Part shown: piece after piece, positions 4,165 to 24,801 of the stretch
Position numbering within the stretch: position 1 is the stretch's first letter
Layout of the letters: every line of letters begins with the position of its first letter
Source of the DNA: an uncultured Thermoanaerobaculia bacterium
GTDB taxonomy: Bacteria; Acidobacteriota; Thermoanaerobaculia; Multivoradales; UBA5704
DNA: 29,377 nucleotides
Direction of reading: 5' to 3'
Assembly: GCA_964245465.1 (NCBI GenBank)
Contig: CAXTNS010000005.1
Span: 1 to 29,377 of the forward strand
Program-made: the position numbers and the translations under genes
The notes under the pieces: model-generated
What the model saw: only the letters and a program-made list of their open reading frames with translations
Databases searched by the model: none
Told to the model about the DNA's origin: nothing

Positions 4165-6837
4165 TCACTCTTGGCCACGGGACAGTCCGGCACGTCTTCT
4201 TCTCGTAGAGCGAGCCTTCGTTTTCCTCTTGGCGGCAGAGGCCTTCTGGGCTCTTTGCTCTTTGACTTTTTCTCGCAGCCGTGCCAAATCCTCACCCGCC
4301 CTCTGCGTGTGGGTATGAGCGGGGCCGAGGCTCGCCTCGAAGACGTCCCGAGCCCGCTGGAGGTTCTCTGCCGCTTCGGACAGTCGGCCCTGAGCCTGGA
4401 GGAGAGAGGCCAGGTTGTGGAGGTCAAACGCCACGTCCGGATGATCCGGGCCGGAGGAGGTCTCGTCGATCTTCAGTGCTTCTAGCAACAGAGGCTCGGC
4501 TTCCCGCGAGCGGCCGTCCCTGTGCAACAGGTCGGCGAGATTGCTGAGGTCGCGGGCAACGTTAGGATGGGTTGGCCCGAAAGCGGCCCGGTCGATCTCC
4601 AGCGCGCACCGCAGCAGCGGCTCGGCTTCTTTCAGATTCGCGGTCGTCCGGATCTCAAGCCGGGCAAAATTCGTCAGGTGGATGGCATGGGTGTGCCCCT
4701 GGTTCCGGGCGGCTTCATCTATGGCGAGCACCCGCCGCATTAGGTCCTTGGCTTCGCTCAACCGGTCCTTATTCTCCTCTAGCAGATTCGCCAGGTTGTT
4801 GAGGATGGGAGCGACGTTGGGATGGGATTCCCCGAAGGTCTGTTCGTAGATTGCCAAGGCTTCGCGCAGGAGAGACTCCGCTTGGGTCAGGTCACCTTGA
4901 GCCCGGACGAGGCTCGCGAGCGTATCGAGGTCGCGAGCGACGCTGGGATGGGTCAGACCCGATGCGGTTTTGTCGATAAGCAAGGCCTTGCGCACAAGAG
5001 ATTCCGCTTCGTCCGGGCGGCTTGTCTTACGAAGCTGCGCCAAGTTGTGCATAGCGGTCGCGACCGCCGGGACAGCGCCGAACTCTTTTTGGCCGATGGC
5101 GAGGGCCTCCTCCATCAGGCGCTCCGCTTCCTGGGAATGAATTGACCGGGAGCCGAGCAGTGTGGCGAGCTGATTCATCAGCCGGAAGGCGCGGGCTCCG
5201 AGGCTATGACGCCGTGCGTGCTCGATCACTTGGGCGGCGTGTGGCCGCAGGCGGTCCCATAAGGGCCAGCAGCGTTCGTCGTTCGGATCCGGGGAGAAGT
5301 CGTCGACGAGCCGCAGAGCGCTCTCCACCCAAAAACCCCGGCGTCCCAAAGGAATCCGATGGCGAGTCGCCTCCTGGACCACCCGTTGAACAGCGATCAC
5401 ACCGCCGCTCCAGCGAACCATTGAGTAGTCGGCCAGGTCCGCCAAGGCTTCTCGCGGCGAGGAGCGAACCGCAGGCTGCTCCATTTCCGCCTGCAATCCC
5501 TCTTCCGCCTGGGCCAGTACCTCAGAGCCGGACAGGATCAGGGCCTCCGGAATGGACTCGGGGGCAAGATAGGCGAGCAGGCGCAGAAGGGCTTCAGCGG
5601 TTGGGCCGAGTTGACTGACGGTTTGCTGATAGGTAACCGCCATGGAGCGGTCATAGCTCGTCGTCTTTGGATCGAACCAGTCGAGGAGTTTGGCCTCTTG
5701 CCCCCAACTCTCCCGGTACTGCCCCAGTGTCATCCGGTTACGAAGAACGTAGGTGGCGGCCTGTTCCAAGGCGAGGGGGAGTCCTCCAAGGATCTCGGCT
5801 AGACGGCTCGCCTCGTCGCTTTCGTCAACAACCCGAGAGTCTGAGGCGATGCGTTGCAAGAGGTAGTGGGCCGCATCCTTCACGGAGATGGGCGCGACCT
5901 CTTGTAGGGCCAGTCCAGGGGGCCAGCGGCTGATCCGGGAGGTCATGAGCACTTGGCCGCTGGGCAGCAGAGGGAGTTGTTCGATCACCGCCCTCGCGGC
6001 TTCCTCGGTGTCAATGCCGTCCAGGATCAGGAGCCAGCCGGGATTGTCTCGCAGCCAACGCAGGACAGCTTCGTAGGCCATCTCCTCCGACCGTGCCTCC
6101 TGTTGAGGCGAGCCGATGAGCCCAGCCAAGGCCGCGAGTTGGGCCCTGAGCCTCTCTCCAGACCGAGCGGATACGAAGAAGGCCGCCTTATAGGAAACTC
6201 CATGACGCCGGGCGTACTCCACGGCCAAGCGCGTCTTGCCCACTCCACCGAGCCCGTGGAGCACTCTCGTCTGCACGGTCAGTGGGGCCGAGCTCTCGCC
6301 CCCCAAGGCGGTCCAGAGAGCCGCCAGGTTTGCATCCCGGCCCTGGAAAGACTCACCGAGGGAAAATGGGACATTCTGAAGCGGGGCTGAAGTCGAGCCT
6401 TGCTTTGCCTCTTTCTGCCTCGGTGGCCGCTTCCCCCGGATTTCCGAGATCAGCCTCTCGAGATTACGGCCGGAGATCCCATCACGCAGATCGACCCAGG
6501 TAAACAGGCTGAGAAAGGACGGGAGGTCCGGCTGACGGGGTGCCCCTGGTAGTAGAACCGGGATGACAGGCTTGTTCTGGTCGACATGCTCATTGAGGAG
6601 GGCTCGCATTTCCAGCTCTTCCCAAGGGCCGAAACCATCCCGACCAACCAGCACCACGGCTGAGCGAGCGCAGGTTACGGCATTTTCAATCTCCCGCTGC
6701 CAGTCAGCACCCGGATGGAGATCCTCTTCGTCGAACCACGGCTTGATCCGGCGTCGACGCAGGATCTTGTAGAGTTCCCGGACCTCGTCCTTGTTGCGGC
6801 TGTTATGGCTTAGAAAAACGTCGACTTCTGCGCCCAT
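4165..6837 (-). CDS. TIR - STAND/NB-ARC-like P-loop NTPase - TPR protein
   Basis: N-terminal VFLSHNS...WFDEEDL...PWEELE (TIR). Walker A GLGGVGKT, Walker B LLILDGID, GGLPLALEQA. About 7-8 C-terminal ~42-aa TPRs (HPxVAxxLxNLAxLL). Confidence 0.9.
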   Translation of the reverse strand: MGAEVDVFLSHNSRNKDEVRELYKILRRRRIKPWFDEEDLHPGADWQREIENAVTCARSAVVLVGRDGFGPWEELEMRALLNEHVDQNKPVIPVLLPGAPRQPDLPSFLSLFTWVDLRDGISGRNLERLISEIRGKRPPRQKEAKQGSTSAPLQNVPFSLGESFQGRDANLAALWTALGGESSAPLTVQTRVLHGLGGVGKTRLAVEYARRHGVSYKAAFFVSARSGERLRAQLAALAGLIGSPQQEARSEEMAYEAVLRWLRDNPGWLLILDGIDTEEAARAVIEQLPLLPSGQVLMTSRISRWPPGLALQEVAPISVKDAAHYLLQRIASDSRVVDESDEASRLAEILGGLPLALEQAATYVLRNRMTLGQYRESWGQEAKLLDWFDPKTTSYDRSMAVTYQQTVSQLGPTAEALLRLLAYLAPESIPEALILSGSEVLAQAEEGLQAEMEQPAVRSSPREALADLADYSMVRWSGGVIAVQRVVQEATRHRIPLGRRGFWVESALRLVDDFSPDPNDERCWPLWDRLRPHAAQVIEHARRHSLGARAFRLMNQLATLLGSRSIHSQEAERLMEEALAIGQKEFGAVPAVATAMHNLAQLRKTSRPDEAESLVRKALLIDKTASGLTHPSVARDLDTLASLVRAQGDLTQAESLLREALAIYEQTFGESHPNVAPILNNLANLLEENKDRLSEAKDLMRRVLAIDEAARNQGHTHAIHLTNFARLEIRTTANLKEAEPLLRCALEIDRAAFGPTHPNVARDLSNLADLLHRDGRSREAEPLLLEALKIDETSSGPDHPDVAFDLHNLASLLQAQGRLSEAAENLQRARDVFEASLGPAHTHTQRAGEDLARLREKVKEQRAQKASAAKRKTKARSTRRRRAGLSRGQE

Positions 6838-6946: not shown

Positions 6947-8017
6947 ATGACGACTGCGAGTCCCCCTTCCTCTTCTCCAGAGAAGAATCTGTCTTCGATC
7001 CGCGGCGAAGCTCATGGCGGTCGTCCCTTGATCCCGATCTTTCTCAGCGTCTTTTTCCTGTTGAGTGCCGGATTGTCCTGGGGACTGTACCAGCAGCAGG
7101 GGGTGATCCGGCAGAAGGACCAGGATTTGCAGCAGGCTCAGGGGCAGATCGCCTCCTTGAAGGGCGAGCTCGTGGGCTACCAACAGGTGGCGGCGAAGGT
7201 CGAGCGTCTGGATGAGATGTTCGACTCCTTCCAAGAGGATGGGAAGACAATTCCCTTCACAAAGTTCGTTGCCGCTCAGCAGGAACGGGTCACGAAGCTG
7301 GAAGAGTCGGTCCAGACCACAGAGAGGAATGACGCGGAGGCGATCTCCGGCCTCAAGGCGACGCTCTCGAGTCTGGAGGCAAGGTTCGGCGAGGCAGATA
7401 GCAAGCTACAGGCACTCGCCAATGTCGGCACTAGGCTAGCGCAGGCTGAGTCTCGCATACAGACCCAGCAGCAGGCACAGCAGCAGGTGCAGACAGCACT
7501 TGCGGAGACGAGGGAGCAGCTCAATGACCGCTTGACCCAGCAGACCAGCCGGTTGACCCAACTCACCAACTCCGTCCAAAACGTCTCTGACCTAGAAGTC
7601 CGAGCCCAGTCTCTCGGTCAGCGCCTCTCGGAACTCGAAGAGCAGGTCGGACGTAAGGCTACCAGAGAGGATCTCAGTGCCAAGCTGACGAGCGTCGACA
7701 GCCGTTTCGATCGGCTGGAGTCACGAATTACAGACTTGGAGCGGCAGGCTCTTAGCTCGGTCGTTTTGCGGGAGGGGCAAGAGGATGTGATTCCGGGAGT
7801 CGGTCTCACCGTAAAGCTCCAGCGTATCAACCCAAATAATGCGATTGACGTGGTCGTCAAGGAGGAAGGCTCCGAGTCAATGCAGCTTACGATGCCACTC
7901 GGTCAGCAAAAGGTCTTCGACTACAAGGGAGGCCGCTACAAAATTACGGTGAAAAGGATCGTGAAGGTTCCAGGCCGGATTAGAGATTTTCTGCAAGTGA
8001 CTCTCGAAACAGCTTGA
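6947..8017 (+). CDS. Membrane-anchored long coiled-coil protein with C-terminal beta-rich domain, hypothetical
   Basis: Single hydrophobic helix PLIPIFLSVFFLLSAGLSWGL, then about 230 aa of Q/E/L/R-rich heptad sequence, then an alternating hydrophobic beta-strand pattern. Confidence 0.75.
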   Translation: MTTASPPSSSPEKNLSSIRGEAHGGRPLIPIFLSVFFLLSAGLSWGLYQQQGVIRQKDQDLQQAQGQIASLKGELVGYQQVAAKVERLDEMFDSFQEDGKTIPFTKFVAAQQERVTKLEESVQTTERNDAEAISGLKATLSSLEARFGEADSKLQALANVGTRLAQAESRIQTQQQAQQQVQTALAETREQLNDRLTQQTSRLTQLTNSVQNVSDLEVRAQSLGQRLSELEEQVGRKATREDLSAKLTSVDSRFDRLESRITDLERQALSSVVLREGQEDVIPGVGLTVKLQRINPNNAIDVVVKEEGSESMQLTMPLGQQKVFDYKGGRYKITVKRIVKVPGRIRDFLQVTLETA

Positions 8018-20225: not shown

Positions 20226-20292
20226 ATCCTGGACTTTCGCGGCGCTATGCCGCCATGCAATAATCCGCCGGTCCGTATTGGAAGGGCTCCCC

Positions 20293-20889
20293 GTGAGCGA
20301 CGTTTCTCCAGGTGGCGTGACGCAGCTCCTGACCGATTGGCAGGCGGGCGACGATCGTGCGCTCGAGCGGCTCATGCCCCTGGTCTACGGCGAGTTGCGC
20401 CGGCTGGCCGGCCGGTATCTCAACCGCGAACGGGAAGGCCATACCTTAGAGACCCATGACCTGATCCACGAGGCCTTCCTGCGCCTCATCGACCAGCGTC
20501 AGGTGGACTGGCAGAGCCGGGCTCACTTCTTCGGCATCGCCGCCCAGATGATGCGGCGGATCCTGGTCGACCATGCCCGCCGCCGCGGCGCGCGCCGGCA
20601 CGGGGGCGACGTGCGCCAGCTCCTGGGGGATGAAGTGGCCGACGTGGCCGTGGATCGCGACGCAAGTCTTGTGGCTCTCGACGAGGCCCTCACCGAGCTC
20701 GCCCGGAGCGACGAGTCGCTCGCCCGTATCGTCGAGCTGCGCTTTTTCGGCGGCCTGGAGCATGACGAGATCGCCTCTCTCCTGGGAGTGTCCAATCCCA
20801 CCGTGAGGCGCCGCTGGCGCGTGGCCCGGGCCTGGCTCTACCGGCATCTGTCTGGCGGCGAGGCTGCTCCGGTGGCGGATGGCGACTGA
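20293..20889 (+). CDS. ECF-type sigma factor of the kinase-associated (TIGR02999-like) type
   Basis: VTQLL..W..GD..AL..L.PLVY.ELRRLA..YL, HEAFLRL, WQSRAHFFGIAAQMMRRILVDHAR, RFFGGL, W..ARAWL. GTG start at 20293. Confidence 0.9.
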   Translation: MSDVSPGGVTQLLTDWQAGDDRALERLMPLVYGELRRLAGRYLNREREGHTLETHDLIHEAFLRLIDQRQVDWQSRAHFFGIAAQMMRRILVDHARRRGARRHGGDVRQLLGDEVADVAVDRDASLVALDEALTELARSDESLARIVELRFFGGLEHDEIASLLGVSNPTVRRRWRVARAWLYRHLSGGEAAPVADGD

Positions 20890-23680
20890 CCGCTGGCGCC
20901 GGATCGAGGCGATCTTCGAGGAGGTCGAGGCGCTTTCCGGGGCCGAGCGGGAAGCGCGCCTCGCGGAGCTGTGCGGCGGCGACGAGCCGCTGCGGCGGGA
21001 GGTCCTCTCCTTGCTCGCCGCTGAAGAGGCGGCCGGCACCTTCCTGGACCGGCCGGCCGGGCAATCACCAGGCGCCACCGTCCTGCCGCCGTCCTCGGCC
21101 GTCGGGCAACGCCTCGGCCCCTACCGCGTGGAGCGCAAGCTCGGCGAGGGCGGCATGGCCTCGGTCTATCTGGCCGTGCGCGCCGACGAGGAGTACCGCC
21201 AGCAGGTCGCCATCAAGATCTTCGGCTATGGCGCGGACCGCTCGGACCTGCTCCATCGCTTCCGCGCCGAACGGCAGATCCTGGCCTCGCTCGACCACCC
21301 GAACATCGCCCGCCTCCTCGACGGCGGCACCACGGAAGACGGCCTTCCCTACCTGGTCATGGAATACATCGACGGCGTCCCCATCGACCGCTTCTGTGAG
21401 CAGAGCGGGTTGGGGATCGACGCCCGCATCGACCTCTTCCGCGAGGTTTGCGCGGCGGTCCAGTACGCGCACCAGAACCTGGTGGTCCACCGCGACATCA
21501 AGCCGTCCAACATCCTGGTGACTGCCGACGGCCGGCCCCACCTGCTCGACTTCGGCATCGCCAAGCTCCTGGAGGGCTCCAACCTGACGGAGGCCGCCGC
21601 CACCCTGACGGGGCAGCGGCTGATGACCCCGCACTACGCCAGCCCCGAGCAGGTGGCGGGCAGGCCGGTGACCACCTCGACCGACGTGTACGCCCTGGGC
21701 GTGCTGCTGTACGTCCTGCTGACCGGCCGCCTGCCCTACCGGCTGGAGGGGGACCGCATAGGAGCCGTCGAGCAGGCGGTGCTGGAGCAGGAGCCGGAGC
21801 GGCCGAGCACGGCTATTAGCTCCCTGTTCCCCGGAGATGACGGTCTGGGGACCACCACGGCGCGCGACCGTCGGCTGGCCCGCTGGCTGGCCGGCGATCT
21901 CGACAACATCGTGCTCATGGCTCTGCGCAAGGAGCCGCAGCGGCGCTATGCCTCGGTCGAGCTGCTGTCCGAAGACCTCCGGCGCTACCGGGAGGGTCTG
22001 ACCGTCCGCGCGCGGCCCGCGACCCTGGAGTACCGGGTGGCCAAGTTCGTGAGCCGCCACCGCCTGGGGGTCGGTCTCGCCGCTGGCTTCTTCCTCCTCG
22101 TCCTCGTCCTTGCCGTGGTGATGACCGTGCAGGCGGTGCGCCTGGCCCGCCAGCGGGATGAGATCCGCCGCGAGCGCGACAAGGCCGTGGAGGTGGCGCG
22201 CCTCCTGGAGGAGGTCTTCTCCAAGGCGGATCCCAGCGAGGCCCGGGGCGAGGAGGTCACCGCCCGCGAGGTGCTCGACAAGGGGGCGAGCCGGGTGATG
22301 GCCGAGATGAAGGGGCAGCCGGAGGTGCAGGCGGCGCTCGCGGCTACCATGGGCAAGGCCTATCAAGGCCTGGGGCTGAACGACAGCGCCCGCCCTCTGC
22401 TGGAGAGGTCGCTGGCGCTCCGGCGGCGGCTGTTTGGCGAGGAGCACCCGGCTGTGGCCGAGAGTCTGGAAGCCCTGGGAAACCTCGTCCAGATCCAGGG
22501 AGACCTGGACCGCGCCGAAGCTCTGCAGCGCCAGGGACTTCGCATCCGCCGCAAGCTCCTGGGCAATGACGATCCCGCCGTGGCCCTGAGCCTCAACGGG
22601 CTCGCCACGGTCCTCACCGCGAAGGCCCAGTACGACGAGGCCGAGCGGCTGCTGCGGGAGGCGCTCGCCATCAACCGACGCCACTACGGCAATGAGCACC
22701 AGGAGGTGGCGACGGACCTGGGCAACCTCGGCTACGTCGTCAAGCTGAAGGGAGACCTCGTGGCGGCCGAGGCCCTCTACAAAGAAACCTTAAGAGTCCT
22801 GCGAAAGCTGTTCGGGAATACCCACCCCATGATCGCCACTCAGCTCAACAACCTGGCCGTCCTGCAAGCCGAGCGCGGCGATCTGGTTGGCGCGGAGAAG
22901 AGCTATCGCGAATCGCTCGCCATCGCTCATCGCCTCTATGGCGAGGAGCATTCCGAGATCGCCCTTCAGCTCAACAACCTGGCGGTCGTGCTTACCCTGC
23001 GCAACGGCCCTGGTGATAGCGAGGAGGCCGAACGCCTGCTGCGCCAGTCCCTGGCCATGCGCCGGAAGCTGCTCGGCCCCGAGCACGAGCAGGTGGCCAT
23101 GGCGGTCAACAACCTGGCCAGGGTGCTCGAAGACCGGGGTGACCTGGCCGCGGCCCGGCCTCTCTACGAAGAGGCCCTGCGCATCTCCCGCAAGGCCTTC
23201 GGTGACAAACATCCGCGGGTCGCCTCCCAGCTCGTCAACCTGGCGAACCTCCTGGCCGCCCAAGGTGACCGGGCGGCGGCCGAGCCGCTGGCCCGCCAAG
23301 CCCTGGCGATTCGCCGCGAGGTGCTCGGCGAGAAGCACCCGGACGTCGGCGCCTCTCTGGTGGGGTTGGGCACCCTTCGTCTCGCCAGAGGCGCGCCCGC
23401 CGAGGCGGAGCCCCTCCTGAGGCAGGGTCTCGAAATCCTGCGCGCGGTGCTGCCGGCCGGCCATCCCCGGATTGCGGAAGGAGAAAGCCAACTCGGCGCT
23501 TGCCTGGAAGCCCGTGGCCGTGCGGCGGAGGCCGGACCACTCCTGGCCTCCGGCTACGAGGCCCTCGCCCGCGCCCGGGGGCCTGCCAATCCCAAGACGA
23601 TCGCCGCCTGCGAGCGGCTGAAAACCTTCCGGGCCGCCCACGGTGGAGGCCCGCCGGTCTCCTGCCACGCTCCCGCCTGA
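20879..23680 (+). CDS. Membrane Hanks-type Ser/Thr kinase with about 10 C-terminal TPRs
   Basis: GEGGMASVY, VAIK, HRDIKPSN, DFG, TPHYASPE, DVYALG. TM helix LGVGLAAGFFLLVLVLAVVMTV. Then ~42-aa repeats HP.VA..LNNLA. Start overlaps the ECF stop region. Confidence 0.95.
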   Translation: MATDRWRRIEAIFEEVEALSGAEREARLAELCGGDEPLRREVLSLLAAEEAAGTFLDRPAGQSPGATVLPPSSAVGQRLGPYRVERKLGEGGMASVYLAVRADEEYRQQVAIKIFGYGADRSDLLHRFRAERQILASLDHPNIARLLDGGTTEDGLPYLVMEYIDGVPIDRFCEQSGLGIDARIDLFREVCAAVQYAHQNLVVHRDIKPSNILVTADGRPHLLDFGIAKLLEGSNLTEAAATLTGQRLMTPHYASPEQVAGRPVTTSTDVYALGVLLYVLLTGRLPYRLEGDRIGAVEQAVLEQEPERPSTAISSLFPGDDGLGTTTARDRRLARWLAGDLDNIVLMALRKEPQRRYASVELLSEDLRRYREGLTVRARPATLEYRVAKFVSRHRLGVGLAAGFFLLVLVLAVVMTVQAVRLARQRDEIRRERDKAVEVARLLEEVFSKADPSEARGEEVTAREVLDKGASRVMAEMKGQPEVQAALAATMGKAYQGLGLNDSARPLLERSLALRRRLFGEEHPAVAESLEALGNLVQIQGDLDRAEALQRQGLRIRRKLLGNDDPAVALSLNGLATVLTAKAQYDEAERLLREALAINRRHYGNEHQEVATDLGNLGYVVKLKGDLVAAEALYKETLRVLRKLFGNTHPMIATQLNNLAVLQAERGDLVGAEKSYRESLAIAHRLYGEEHSEIALQLNNLAVVLTLRNGPGDSEEAERLLRQSLAMRRKLLGPEHEQVAMAVNNLARVLEDRGDLAAARPLYEEALRISRKAFGDKHPRVASQLVNLANLLAAQGDRAAAEPLARQALAIRREVLGEKHPDVGASLVGLGTLRLARGAPAEAEPLLRQGLEILRAVLPAGHPRIAEGESQLGACLEARGRAAEAGPLLASGYEALARARGPANPKTIAACERLKTFRAAHGGGPPVSCHAPA

Positions 23681-23741
23681 AAAATTCTTTTGGACCGCGT
23701 GATCGCTTTGGCCACCGCTTTACGCGTTAGGGAAGAACCCG

Positions 23742-23758
23742 GCTGCTCAACGAGCAGC
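23742..23758 (+). promoter_or_regulatory. Hairpin in the leader of the peptide array
   Basis: GCTGCTC-AAC-GAGCAGC, perfect 7-bp stem, 20 nt before the first peptide ATG. Confidence 0.45.
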
Positions 23759-23778
23759 GCAGCAAGAAGGAGACGGTC

Positions 23779-23829
23779 ATGAAAATCAAGGCGAACGTCA
23801 AGGCTGGCGGCATTCTCCTCAGCGACTAA
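23779..23829 (+). CDS. 16-aa peptide 1: MKIKANVKAGG-ILLSD
   Basis: AAGGAGA RBS, ATG..TAA, one of five paralogues with synonymous codon differences. Confidence 0.88.
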   Translation: MKIKANVKAGGILLSD

Positions 23830-23877
23830 GCTGAACGGAACCTCGCAGAAAAATCTTTGGAAATTCAGGAGTCAACC

Positions 23878-23928
23878 ATGAAGGTCAAGGCAAACGTAAA
23901 GGCCGGCGGTATCCTCGCCAGCGACTAA
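23878..23928 (+). CDS. 16-aa peptide 2: MKVKANVKAGG-ILASD
   Basis: CAGGAG RBS, ATG..TAA, paralogue. Confidence 0.88.
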   Translation: MKVKANVKAGGILASD

Positions 23929-23974
23929 GTTGGACTGAACCTCGAAGCAAACTCTGGAACTGAAGGAGTAAGCC

Positions 23975-24025
23975 ATGAAAGTCAAGGCGAACGTAAAGGC
24001 CGGCGGCATCATGATGTCGGATTAG
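23975..24025 (+). CDS. 16-aa peptide 3: MKVKANVKAGG-IMMSD
   Basis: AAGGAG RBS, ATG..TAG, paralogue. Confidence 0.88.
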   Translation: MKVKANVKAGGIMMSD

Positions 24026-24082
24026 GTATGTCTCCATGGAGACAGCCTGAATCATAGGAATGCAACACGAAAGGAGACAGTC

Positions 24083-24133
24083 ATGAAGATCAAGGCGAAC
24101 GTGAAGGCCGGCGGCCATTTGATGGGCGACTAA
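24083..24133 (+). CDS. 16-aa peptide 4: MKIKANVKAGG-HLMGD
   Basis: AAAGGAGA RBS, ATG..TAA, paralogue. Confidence 0.88.
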   Translation: MKIKANVKAGGHLMGD

Positions 24134-24169
24134 CCAATCTTGAGAAACTCTGAACTGAAGGAGAAGGAC

Positions 24170-24220
24170 ATGAAGATCAAGGCGAACGTGAAGGCCGGCG
24201 GCATCCTCCTCGGCGACTGA
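24170..24220 (+). CDS. 16-aa peptide 5: MKIKANVKAGG-ILLGD
   Basis: AAGGAGA RBS, ATG..TGA, paralogue. Confidence 0.88.
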   Translation: MKIKANVKAGGILLGD

Positions 24221-24287
24221 GAGCGTTGAGCACACCGGCCCCCGGCGGACCTCAGAATCCTTCCGCGGGGCTGGTCAAGCCTCCTCT

Positions 24288-24320
24288 CCGGCCTCACCCC
24301 TGGAGGCCGGTTGTTTTTTT
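24288..24320 (+). terminator. Rho-independent terminator closing the peptide array
   Basis: CCGGCCTC (24288-24295) / GAGGCCGG (24303-24310) 8-bp stem followed by TTGTTTTTTT. Confidence 0.8.
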
Positions 24321-24801
24321 ATCCCGTATCCCATCGCTTCAGGATCATCTGGATCTCGTCCCGGTGGGTGGTCTCGTCGCGGATCAGGTCGTCGAACTCG
24401 ACGGCCAAGCCGTAGTGGCCCAAGGATTCGGCCTGCTTGCGGCGCAGGACATAGCGCTGGATGGTCTCGATCTCGTCTTCCAACGCGTTTCGGAGCATCT
24501 CCTTGGAGTCCTTCGCCGACTTGACCCCGGCGGGGACCGTGGTGGGCGTGCCGCCCAAGGACACGATCTTGTCGGCCAGGATCTGGGCGTGGCCGAGCTC
24601 ATCGGGGATCTCGTTCTCGAAGAACTGGCGCAGTTCCATGCGCCACTGGCCCTGCACCTGGCTGGCGTAGGTGCGGTACAGGATTACCGCCGCATACTCG
24701 TGCGCGAGGTCCACGTTCAAACCTTCAAGGAACTGGTCGTGGGAGACCTGGGCATCGCTGCCGGTTCCCTCGTCATCCCTCTTCTTGCCATTCTTTGCCA
24801 T
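24319..24801 (-). CDS. Ferritin-like / bacterioferritin-family di-iron protein
   Basis: EYAAVILY, DELGHA, EIETIQRY, DETTHRD (ExxH pairs). AAAGGAG RBS. Confidence 0.88.
   Translation of the reverse strand: MAKNGKKRDDEGTGSDAQVSHDQFLEGLNVDLAHEYAAVILYRTYASQVQGQWRMELRQFFENEIPDELGHAQILADKIVSLGGTPTTVPAGVKSAKDSKEMLRNALEDEIETIQRYVLRRKQAESLGHYGLAVEFDDLIRDETTHRDEIQMILKRWDTG

Follow-up and report, generated by a model that had tools for sequence, protein, structure and literature searches.

The window analysed here, a stretch of 29,377 nucleotides (nt) comprising positions 1 to 29,377 of contig CAXTNS010000005.1 (assembly GCA_964245465.1, forward strand), comes from an uncultured Thermoanaerobaculia bacterium of the phylum Acidobacteriota. 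Positions 23779-24220 of its plus strand hold an array of five open reading frames (ORFs) of exactly 51 nt each (16 codons plus a stop), which encode the precursors MKIKANVKAGGILLSD, MKVKANVKAGGILASD, MKVKANVKAGGIMMSD, MKIKANVKAGGHLMGD and MKIKANVKAGGILLGD, all of the pattern MK[IV]KANVKAGG followed by five variable residues. Comparisons within the array and across genomes demonstrate that these genes, which sit between a promoter motif resembling those of extracytoplasmic function (ECF) sigma factors and a predicted terminator, are coding, selected and conserved. They are preceded by a sigma factor gene and a receptor kinase gene, so that the locus reads as follows:

20278-20889, plus strand: ECF sigma factor gene of the PF07638/TIGR02999 type, its last 11 nt overlapping the start of the kinase gene (20879-20889)
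20879-23680, plus strand: receptor serine/threonine (Ser/Thr) kinase gene, 933 residues (Pkinase E 7e-45, TPR_12 E 1e-78)
23700-23730, plus strand: ECF-type promoter-like motif TGATCGCTTT-N7-GCTTTACGCGTTAG with an A-rich tract on its 5' side, between kinase and peptide genes
23779-23829, plus strand: peptide gene 1, MKIKANVKAGG-ILLSD
23878-23928, plus strand: peptide gene 2, MKVKANVKAGG-ILASD
23975-24025, plus strand: peptide gene 3, MKVKANVKAGG-IMMSD
24083-24133, plus strand: peptide gene 4, MKIKANVKAGG-HLMGD
24170-24220, plus strand: peptide gene 5, MKIKANVKAGG-ILLGD
24288-24320, plus strand: intrinsic terminator-like hairpin (8 pairs, 7 of them G-C) with a T-run, closing the array

An AGGAG ribosome-binding site stands about 7 nt 5' of the ATG in all five array ORFs. 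The constant part (hereafter the leader) ends in Gly-Gly at residues 10-11 in every one of them, as it does in three paralogues on another contig of the same genome, while the variable part (the core) follows the consensus [IH][LM][LAM][SG]D in the window array. Three genes end in TAA, one in TAG and one in TGA; Ser15, where present, is encoded by AGC, AGC and TCG; and the spacers (48, 46, 57 and 36 nt) differ in both length and sequence. These features had been described in the original prediction, made from the letters of the window alone, and its account held in full: the five 51-nt ORFs with their positions, AGGAG sites and peptide sequences, the use of all three stop codons, the two kinds of Ser15 codon, the 36-57-nt spacers, and every synonymous variant that it listed at K2, A5, V7, A9, G11 and D16. 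On the 3' side of the array, the opposite strand carries a ferritin-like gene, and there are also AtuA-type genes.

Coding capacity of the array

The pattern of substitutions among the five genes is that of selected peptides. Only six of the 33 nucleotide sites in the leader are variable; five of these are synonymous third positions and the sixth produces the Ile/Val alternation. When the ten gene pairs are summed, leader codons 2-11 contain 26 synonymous and 6 non-synonymous differences, corresponding to a proportion of synonymous differences (pS) of 0.364, a proportion of non-synonymous differences (pN) of 0.026 and a ratio of 0.07. The five core codons, by comparison, have a pN/pS of 0.54, and 12 of their 15 sites are variable. 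Selection on peptide sequence, as originally proposed, is thus borne out by the leader and core ratios.

Searches with controls gave the same picture. A degenerate DNA pattern for the leader matched eight times on the forward reading of the bacterium's own genome and not once when reversed, and it found matches in eight of 41 same-genus genomes (Thermoanaerobaculia metagenome-assembled genomes, or MAGs), where the reversed control again gave none. A Shine-Dalgarno motif precedes 83% of the 149 listed family matches, compared with 10% of the ATGs overall in that DNA; the ORF lengths of these matches peak sharply at 16-17 codons. Since the leader pattern fixes amino acids, leader conservation across the family is partly built into the search; the substitution pattern within the window, the Shine-Dalgarno sites and the ORF lengths are not. 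A chance origin of the array ORFs lies far outside expectation, and the five ORFs are real, coding genes.

We therefore consider it extremely improbable that the array is non-coding, as a repeat or a regulatory element, or that it belongs to a 116-codon ORF on the minus strand (23885-24235). The array units do form short direct repeats, and the minus strand does contain an open frame, but the substitutions are synonymous when read in the plus frame, whereas in the minus-strand ORF they occupy first codon positions. We reject the latter as a gene and regard it as a by-product of the array, because it is the variable third positions of the plus strand that hit its first codon positions. Also at odds with a non-coding element are the Shine-Dalgarno site on every copy, the use of all three stop codons, and the preservation of the peptide sequence across phyla with different codons. 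An Rfam search of the array gave nothing above noise (one sub-threshold match to a small nucleolar RNA).

One leader, many cores

Searching for the leader across genomes and tabulating its neighbours, a course suggested together with the original prediction, placed it in many phyla, beside genes for exporters, tetratricopeptide repeat (TPR) proteins, kinases and ECF sigma factors. Our scan covered one genome per prokaryotic species and yielded at least 117 stretches from the leader pattern. Among the listed matches, to which the distribution given here refers, the leader MK[IV]K[TSA]x[IVL]KAGG marks the family and cores are mostly 5-6 residues long. The leader is found in Acidobacteriota (Thermoanaerobaculia, Blastocatellia, Pyrinomonadaceae, Bryobacterales and Holophagales), in Pirellulaceae and other Planctomycetota, in Verrucomicrobiota, in Gamma- and Betaproteobacteria (including the cultured Methylomicrobium lacus), and in Myxococcota, Chloroflexota, Gemmatimonadaceae and Acidimicrobiia. 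The same leader precedes dozens of distinct short cores across many phyla, and the core classes are lineage-specific: hydrophobic-x3-[SGT]D and xxxTGAD in Thermoanaerobaculia and Pyrinomonadaceae, F[ST]WS[NRQ] in Pseudomonadales, Gxx[WF]xG in Pirellulaceae and NRCxTxR in methanotrophs. Matches from Rhizobium/Neorhizobium and a few others were discarded as N-termini of unrelated proteins of 41-200 residues that fit the pattern by chance.

At L060/L016, from the same genus and with a kinase 71% identical to that of the window, an ECF gene and the kinase gene are accompanied by peptides ending in IMLGD, ITLTGAD, ILVSD and VLIGD; set against the window cores, these indicate that array content turns over quickly while the leader stays constant. 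The bacterium's own genome holds three further family genes on contig C237 (L146:6333-6389, 6427-6483 and 7497-7553), whose peptides (MKVKTTLKAGGITVTGAD, MKVKTKVKAGGVVMTGAD and VKIKTKVKAGGITLTGAD) have 18 residues, the pattern MKVKT..KAGG[IV]..TGAD and strong Shine-Dalgarno sites. Around them lie BNR/sortilin-repeat genes and an importer-type ATP-binding cassette (ABC) ATPase gene, with no kinase, ECF or exporter gene adjoining.

The family also has longer relatives, which contain several repeats of the unit LKVKTxVKAGG-xxx-NHNQT-xx-RG. Such forms, of 40-200 residues and in some cases present in multiple copies per locus, occur at L089, L092, L096, L107, L134 and elsewhere; as each repeat unit has a KAGG of its own, they may be cut into many peptides. 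A different extended form was seen in a Holophagales MAG, where a minus-strand ORF (L121:5613-6626) starts as a family peptide (MKIKTQVKAGGISINHNQT...) and continues without a stop into a TPR protein; this is either a true peptide-TPR fusion or a sequencing frameshift.

The peptides, read from four codons upstream to reach 20 residues, had no match in Pfam or NCBIfam up to an E-value of 10, and the long repeat forms gave noise only against the same collections. When a long form was compared with the ESM Atlas, 95 of 100 matches belonged to clusters with no Pfam family in common, 'hypothetical protein' being the name of the top three. A literature search found no description of the family or its motifs, including among the peptides of Gram-negative peptidase-containing ABC transporters (PCATs). 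The original view that the family is undescribed thus stands, there being no Pfam or NCBIfam model and no paper found with the motif. Judged by their shared leader, the array genes are members of a large, widespread and unnamed 'KAGG mini-leader' family of double-glycine peptides.

Exporters, sigma factors and kinases beside the peptide genes

Neighbour families were defined by all-against-all BLAST clustering of the ORFs from the at least 117 scan loci, the same-genus loci and the window. The recurrent ones are an HlyD-type adaptor; an ABC protein of 870-940 residues with an N-terminal Peptidase_C39 domain followed by ABC_membrane and ABC_tran (C39-ABC); a second ABC protein of about 700-800 residues that has no peptidase; and TPR, kinase and ECF genes. 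Several other apparent families proved to be antisense frames of the exporter, TPR, kinase and ECF genes. Exporter genes were present in 24 of the 69 listed short-peptide loci, and the C39 region itself in 14 of the 69; because locus chunks were at most 8 kb and were not centred on the peptide, these counts are lower bounds. The catalytic Gln, Cys, His and Asp of C39 (VQTSxMDCGPA, THFVV, MDPA) are intact in all 11 aligned peptide-linked exporters, which also have in common, ahead of the membrane domain, a conserved stretch of roughly 170 inserted residues; the classical PCAT of the bacterium's own genome does not have this insert. Its sequence (WREWAGS...LAALDAA.RM...) lies between the peptidase and membrane domains, for example at L080:2000-4603, L068:4113-6779 and nine others.

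Within the genus, exporter and peptide genes occur together. In one genome (G018), the second ABC gene is followed, at a distance of 85 nt, by the start of an array of the window's peptide class with cores VLVTD, VVLSD and VLISD as well as VxxxPG forms. A close orthologue of the second ABC protein (59-82% identity) was found in seven of the eight peptide-bearing genomes and in one of the 33 others (Fisher p 3e-6, for relatives that are not independent of one another), and the two exceptions are genomes that are 81% and 77% complete. The window's own genome encodes an exporter at C216:2-3285 that is up to about 72-76% identical to peptide-linked exporters. The apparent frame changes in its genes fall where the sequence has runs of N; they reflect scaffolding gaps, and we reject decay as their explanation.

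Because relatives with the same leader adjoin genes for HlyD, a C39-peptidase ABC protein and the second ABC protein, an export leader very probably ends at the Gly-Gly. Removal of an 11-residue leader, which had been proposed at the outset, gains from the exporter adjacency, the intact C39 residues and the genus distribution (7/8 versus 1/33), while the leader departs from the classical double-glycine consensus; leader removal and export are probably real, being well supported by comparison.

Two other exporter-like loci in the same genome stand apart from the family. Contig C29 (L145:8000-12924) has a classical set of outer-membrane protein, HlyD and a 765-residue PCAT beside a DUF7005 gene, with no family peptide nearby. 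A C39 fragment at the end of contig C713, considered as a candidate exporter, matches none of the clustered ORFs from peptide loci, peptide-linked exporters included. A full set is present in the complete genome of Methylomicrobium lacus strain 22M6SE5-12 (L068, 632001-640000), where two NRCETFR-type peptides accompany genes for a TPR protein, HlyD, a C39-ABC exporter and the second ABC protein; this cultured methanotroph is an experimentally tractable host for the family.

The sigma factor upstream of the window array is assigned by family models (Pfam PF07638, E 4.5e-58; TIGR02999, 217.5 bits against a cut-off of 126), and five of seven PF07638 sigma paralogues in the genome are followed by a gene for a Hanks-type kinase, the other two running off their contigs. 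The sigma/kinase pair is without an anti-sigma gene. The kinase carries the VAIK, HRDIK, DFG and SPE motifs in a cytoplasmic Hanks domain, followed by one transmembrane helix (about residues 396-420; a single Kyte-Doolittle peak of 2.82 at residue 396, the next best being 1.45) and about 450 residues of TPR_12/TPR_10 repeats. Since these repeats follow the single membrane helix, the C-terminal TPR domain should be periplasmic. In sigma factors of group ECF43, the acidic DAED motif of region 2.2 is replaced by an uncharged Thr-containing motif (PMC8999054). By eye, the window sigma factor reads LETHD at this site, with Thr plus Glu and Asp, and because acidic residues are kept, its dependence on phosphorylation is uncertain.

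ECF, kinase and/or TPR genes adjoin 11 of the 69 short-form and 16 of the 27 repeat-form listed loci. In one Thermoanaerobaculia MAG (L119), a single row holds the C39-ABC gene, the second ABC gene, an ECF gene, a kinase gene (its product 75% identical to that of the window) and peptide genes, an order that by its gene content ties exporter, ECF/kinase pair and peptides together.

The promoter-like motif at 23700-23730, whose elements include TGATCG and CGCGTTAG, also stands 5' of peptide genes at L016, L106 (twice) and L022/L086, and variants of it precede peptide genes beside ECF/kinase pairs in Blastocatellia, Pyrinomonadaceae and a Planctomycetaceae MAG. A search of 23600-24400 gave no promoter of the sigma-70 type. 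Elsewhere in the bacterium's own genome the motif occurs just once (C804:2315-2345), directly behind a TPR-coding stretch in which another Ser/Thr kinase gene probably ends and about 40 nt 5' of a gene whose product begins with a signal peptide (MKKPMLCFLILML...). Its position between TPR stretch and signal-peptide gene suggests that ECF/kinase pairs each drive a downstream secreted product. At L096, too, the motif is found 5' of secreted-protein genes. We read the motif as a likely target promoter of the window's ECF family, with the array as one target and not the only kind.

TPR proteins without membrane helix or signal peptide (370-410 residues) are the TPR partners in exporter-type loci of several phyla. 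At L044, L068, L094, L107, L039, L034, L052 and L050, which represent four phyla, a TPR_12 protein is encoded between the peptide gene and HlyD. Such a helix-less protein may be a cytoplasmic leader-binding adaptor. The window itself encodes, at 4165-6837 on the minus strand, an 890-residue TIR, STAND NTPase and TPR_12 protein. The peptide-linked TPR proteins resemble its TPR region and that of the kinase equally well, and TPR similarity alone is therefore generic. Docking of the kinase TPR domain (residues 425-933) with peptide 1 reached a median score of 0.06, the tool's mark being 0.34; by the rule that the tool sets, this speaks neither for binding nor against it.

Proposed function and relation to known systems

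On balance we favour the reading that the array encodes exported mini double-glycine precursors that are driven by the ECF/kinase pair, cut to five residues and secreted as signals. The ECF sigma factor, once activated by its partner receptor kinase in the manner of ECF43-type pairs, would give rise to a single polycistronic transcript of the array, each gene of which would be translated from its own Shine-Dalgarno site. The 11-residue basic leader would act as the export tag for the dedicated HlyD, C39-peptidase ABC and second ABC proteins (C216), and the C39 domain would cut after Gly11 so that a five-residue product exits unmodified. That the kinase activates the sigma factor and that the sigma factor transcribes the array we infer from the gene architecture and from published ECF/kinase pairs. 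The weakest step is the last, in which the products would be secreted signals rather than toxins and the TPR domain of the kinase their candidate receptor, closing an autoinduction loop; it is tentatively suggested by the small size of the products (5-6 residues), by their variation between species and by the accompanying sensor kinase with its outward-facing TPR domain.

A complete autoinducer circuit, in which the pentapeptide acts on the periplasmic TPR domain, the kinase phosphorylates the ECF sigma factor and the array is transcribed in turn, seems doubtful at present. We are equally guarded about whether such a circuit would amount to peptide quorum sensing of a new architecture, built from a double-glycine mini-peptide, a Hanks kinase and an ECF sigma factor.

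Several observations weigh against the favoured reading. The exporter in the bacterium's own genome is not beside the array, and its N-terminal part is missing at the contig end; from the co-occurrence in the genus and the placement on C216, it appears that peptide genes unlinked to their exporter are normal in this genus. Neither exporter nor regulator is present at 37 of the 69 listed short-peptide loci, many of which lie at chunk edges. The promoter-like motif precedes ordinary secreted-protein genes too, so the kinase may sense something else, and because the TPR partner in exporter-type loci is cytoplasmic and without a membrane helix, the ligand of the TPR domains may be the conserved leader within the cell and not the exported core. 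The leader, at 11 residues, basic and with Lys at -4, falls outside the classical consensus, and no leader model matched it. Finally, no RNA run matched the locus (six runs, none of them shown to be RNA, share 4% of the array words), and no sequencing run was listed for the 2.1-kb stretch.

Other readings share parts of this evidence. The peptides could be exported and cut as proposed and yet not be sensed by the neighbouring kinase, being instead the output of an ECF/kinase response to stress or competition (effectors, metal or surface binders, or signals for another receptor). The motif upstream of ordinary secreted-protein genes, after another kinase gene in the same genome and at L096, fits such a role, as do the three C237 family members with no kinase nearby, and ECF43-type pairs are known to respond to external stress, e.g. 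polymyxin or amoebae (PMC8999054, PMC13147305). Unmodified five-residue peptides are, however, too small for known bacteriocin mechanisms, and peptide genes are linked to TPR-bearing proteins time and again across several phyla, which suggests a direct connection; we therefore judge this alternative unlikely. Whether the 16-mers are cut at all has also to be weighed, as they could be whole small basic proteins of the cell or membrane that, for instance, bind TPR domains through KVKxxVKAGG. It is the 'leader' that is conserved, and in the long forms repeated internally as (LKVKTxVKAGG...NHNQT...)n, the TPR protein of exporter-type loci is cytoplasmic, and L121 reads as a peptide-TPR fusion. Such a role is hard to reconcile with an invariant Gly-Gly at positions 10-11, immediately ahead of the variable part, or with the close association, both genomic and phyletic, with a C39 exporter whose catalytic residues are intact, and we think it very unlikely.

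The remaining alternative is that the array encodes precursors of peptides made by ribosomes and modified after translation (RiPPs), whose KAGG leader recruits an enzyme encoded elsewhere and whose cores acquire their modifications before or after export. A constant leader joined to hypervariable cores in a multi-copy array is a typical RiPP arrangement, the exporter triad of HlyD, C39-ABC and second ABC resembles that of the NHLP/Nif11 systems, and many cores have Trp, Cys or a C-terminal Asp or Gly, which are common modification sites. Against this, the shared neighbours include no radical SAM, YcaO, LanM/LanKC, ATP-grasp, MNIO or other tailoring enzyme; the recurring genes are all of the exporter, TPR, kinase or ECF kind, and the window has no tailoring enzyme next to the array. 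ORF clustering of the at least 117 loci revealed no conserved tailoring enzyme or RRE-containing protein within the 8-kb neighbourhoods that it covered. A RiPP identity is in our view quite improbable. As for the original suggestion of 'signals or RiPP cores', the lack of a conserved modifying enzyme in these neighbourhoods speaks against its second half, and the first is retained as a tentative proposal.

C39-type peptide secretion is best studied in pheromone and bacteriocin systems of Gram-positive bacteria, and the favoured reading, if true, would extend it to poorly studied, largely uncultured Gram-negative groups. If the pentapeptides are indeed exported, they would be among the smallest double-glycine peptides known. 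Genes of 16-18 codons are missed by gene callers, and a peptide family that spans many phyla has in consequence been left unannotated. To our knowledge, the natural signals of the ECF/kinase class are mostly unknown, and the repeated pairing seen here gives this class a candidate ligand or, failing that, a defined target gene. Peptide signalling between cells of Acidobacteria and Planctomycetes becomes directly testable, and the autoinducer circuit, should it exist, would be spread over Acidobacteriota, Planctomycetota and other Gram-negative soil phyla.

Among known systems, the closest general likeness is to the classical double-glycine peptides (ComC/ComAB, BlpC/BlpAB, class II bacteriocins and microcins), whose leaders also end in Gly-Gly (PMC7595303, PMC6363468, PMC12219008) and which are likewise linked to a C39 ABC exporter and an HlyD-type adaptor, with no modification implied. 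The window leader differs in being 11 residues long and basic, with Lys at -4 and Ala/Thr at -7, where classical leaders have 15-30 residues with hydrophobic positions at -4, -7, -12 and -15; microcin signal sequences have 15-18 residues (PMC12219008). Cores of 5-6 residues in the KAGG family compare with 17-100 in classical double-glycine peptides, and the exporters linked to the family, with their insert of roughly 170 residues and a peptidase-less second ABC protein, are unlike classical PCAT systems. The hosts are Gram-negative soil phyla, and the regulators would be an ECF sigma factor and a Ser/Thr kinase in place of the histidine kinase of the classical systems.

The NHLP/Nif11 systems (TIGR03794, TIGR03796, TIGR03797) have the same layout of HlyD, first ABC (C39) and second ABC, and likewise many precursors with one Gly-Gly leader and hypervariable cores. 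The KAGG leader is unrelated to theirs (nitrile hydratase alpha or Nif11) and about six times shorter, however, no lanthionine synthetase or tailoring enzyme is nearby, and the exporter scores far below the equivalog cut-offs of the models (176.5 versus 853; 155.7 and 109.3 versus 709; 37.4 versus 156).

The PatS gene has fewer than 20 codons. In Anabaena/Nostoc, PatS offers a C-terminal pentapeptide signal, and HetC is a C39-type ABC exporter (PCAT) in a Gram-negative that has been proposed to process regulatory peptides (PMC4133259, PMC10986499, PMC7761841). PatS differs in having no KAGG leader, an unproven link to HetC, the cytoplasmic receptor HetR, no arrays and no ECF/kinase module. The Phr peptides of RRNPP systems resemble the window array in their five-residue C-terminal products, a TPR protein as (candidate) receptor and variation between species. 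They use a Sec signal peptide, re-import through Opp and a cytoplasmic TPR receptor, whereas the window peptides are of the double-glycine type and the candidate TPR domain would lie on the outer side, on a kinase. No hydrophobic core of a Sec signal is present in the 11-residue leader of the array peptides, and with no cytoplasmic Rap-type receptor either, the initial comparison with Phr-Rap serves as an analogy only.

For the regulatory half of the locus, the nearest counterparts are EcfP/PknT of Vibrio parahaemolyticus and EcfK/PknS of Xanthomonas citri, for which neither a peptide ligand nor a peptide target gene has been described (PMC8999054, PMC13147305). As in the window, an ECF sigma factor is coupled in these pairs to a single-pass kinase with no anti-sigma factor (PMC8999054, PMC13147305), and PknS of Xanthomonas has the same topology as that predicted here, with a periplasmic TPR region (PMC13147305).

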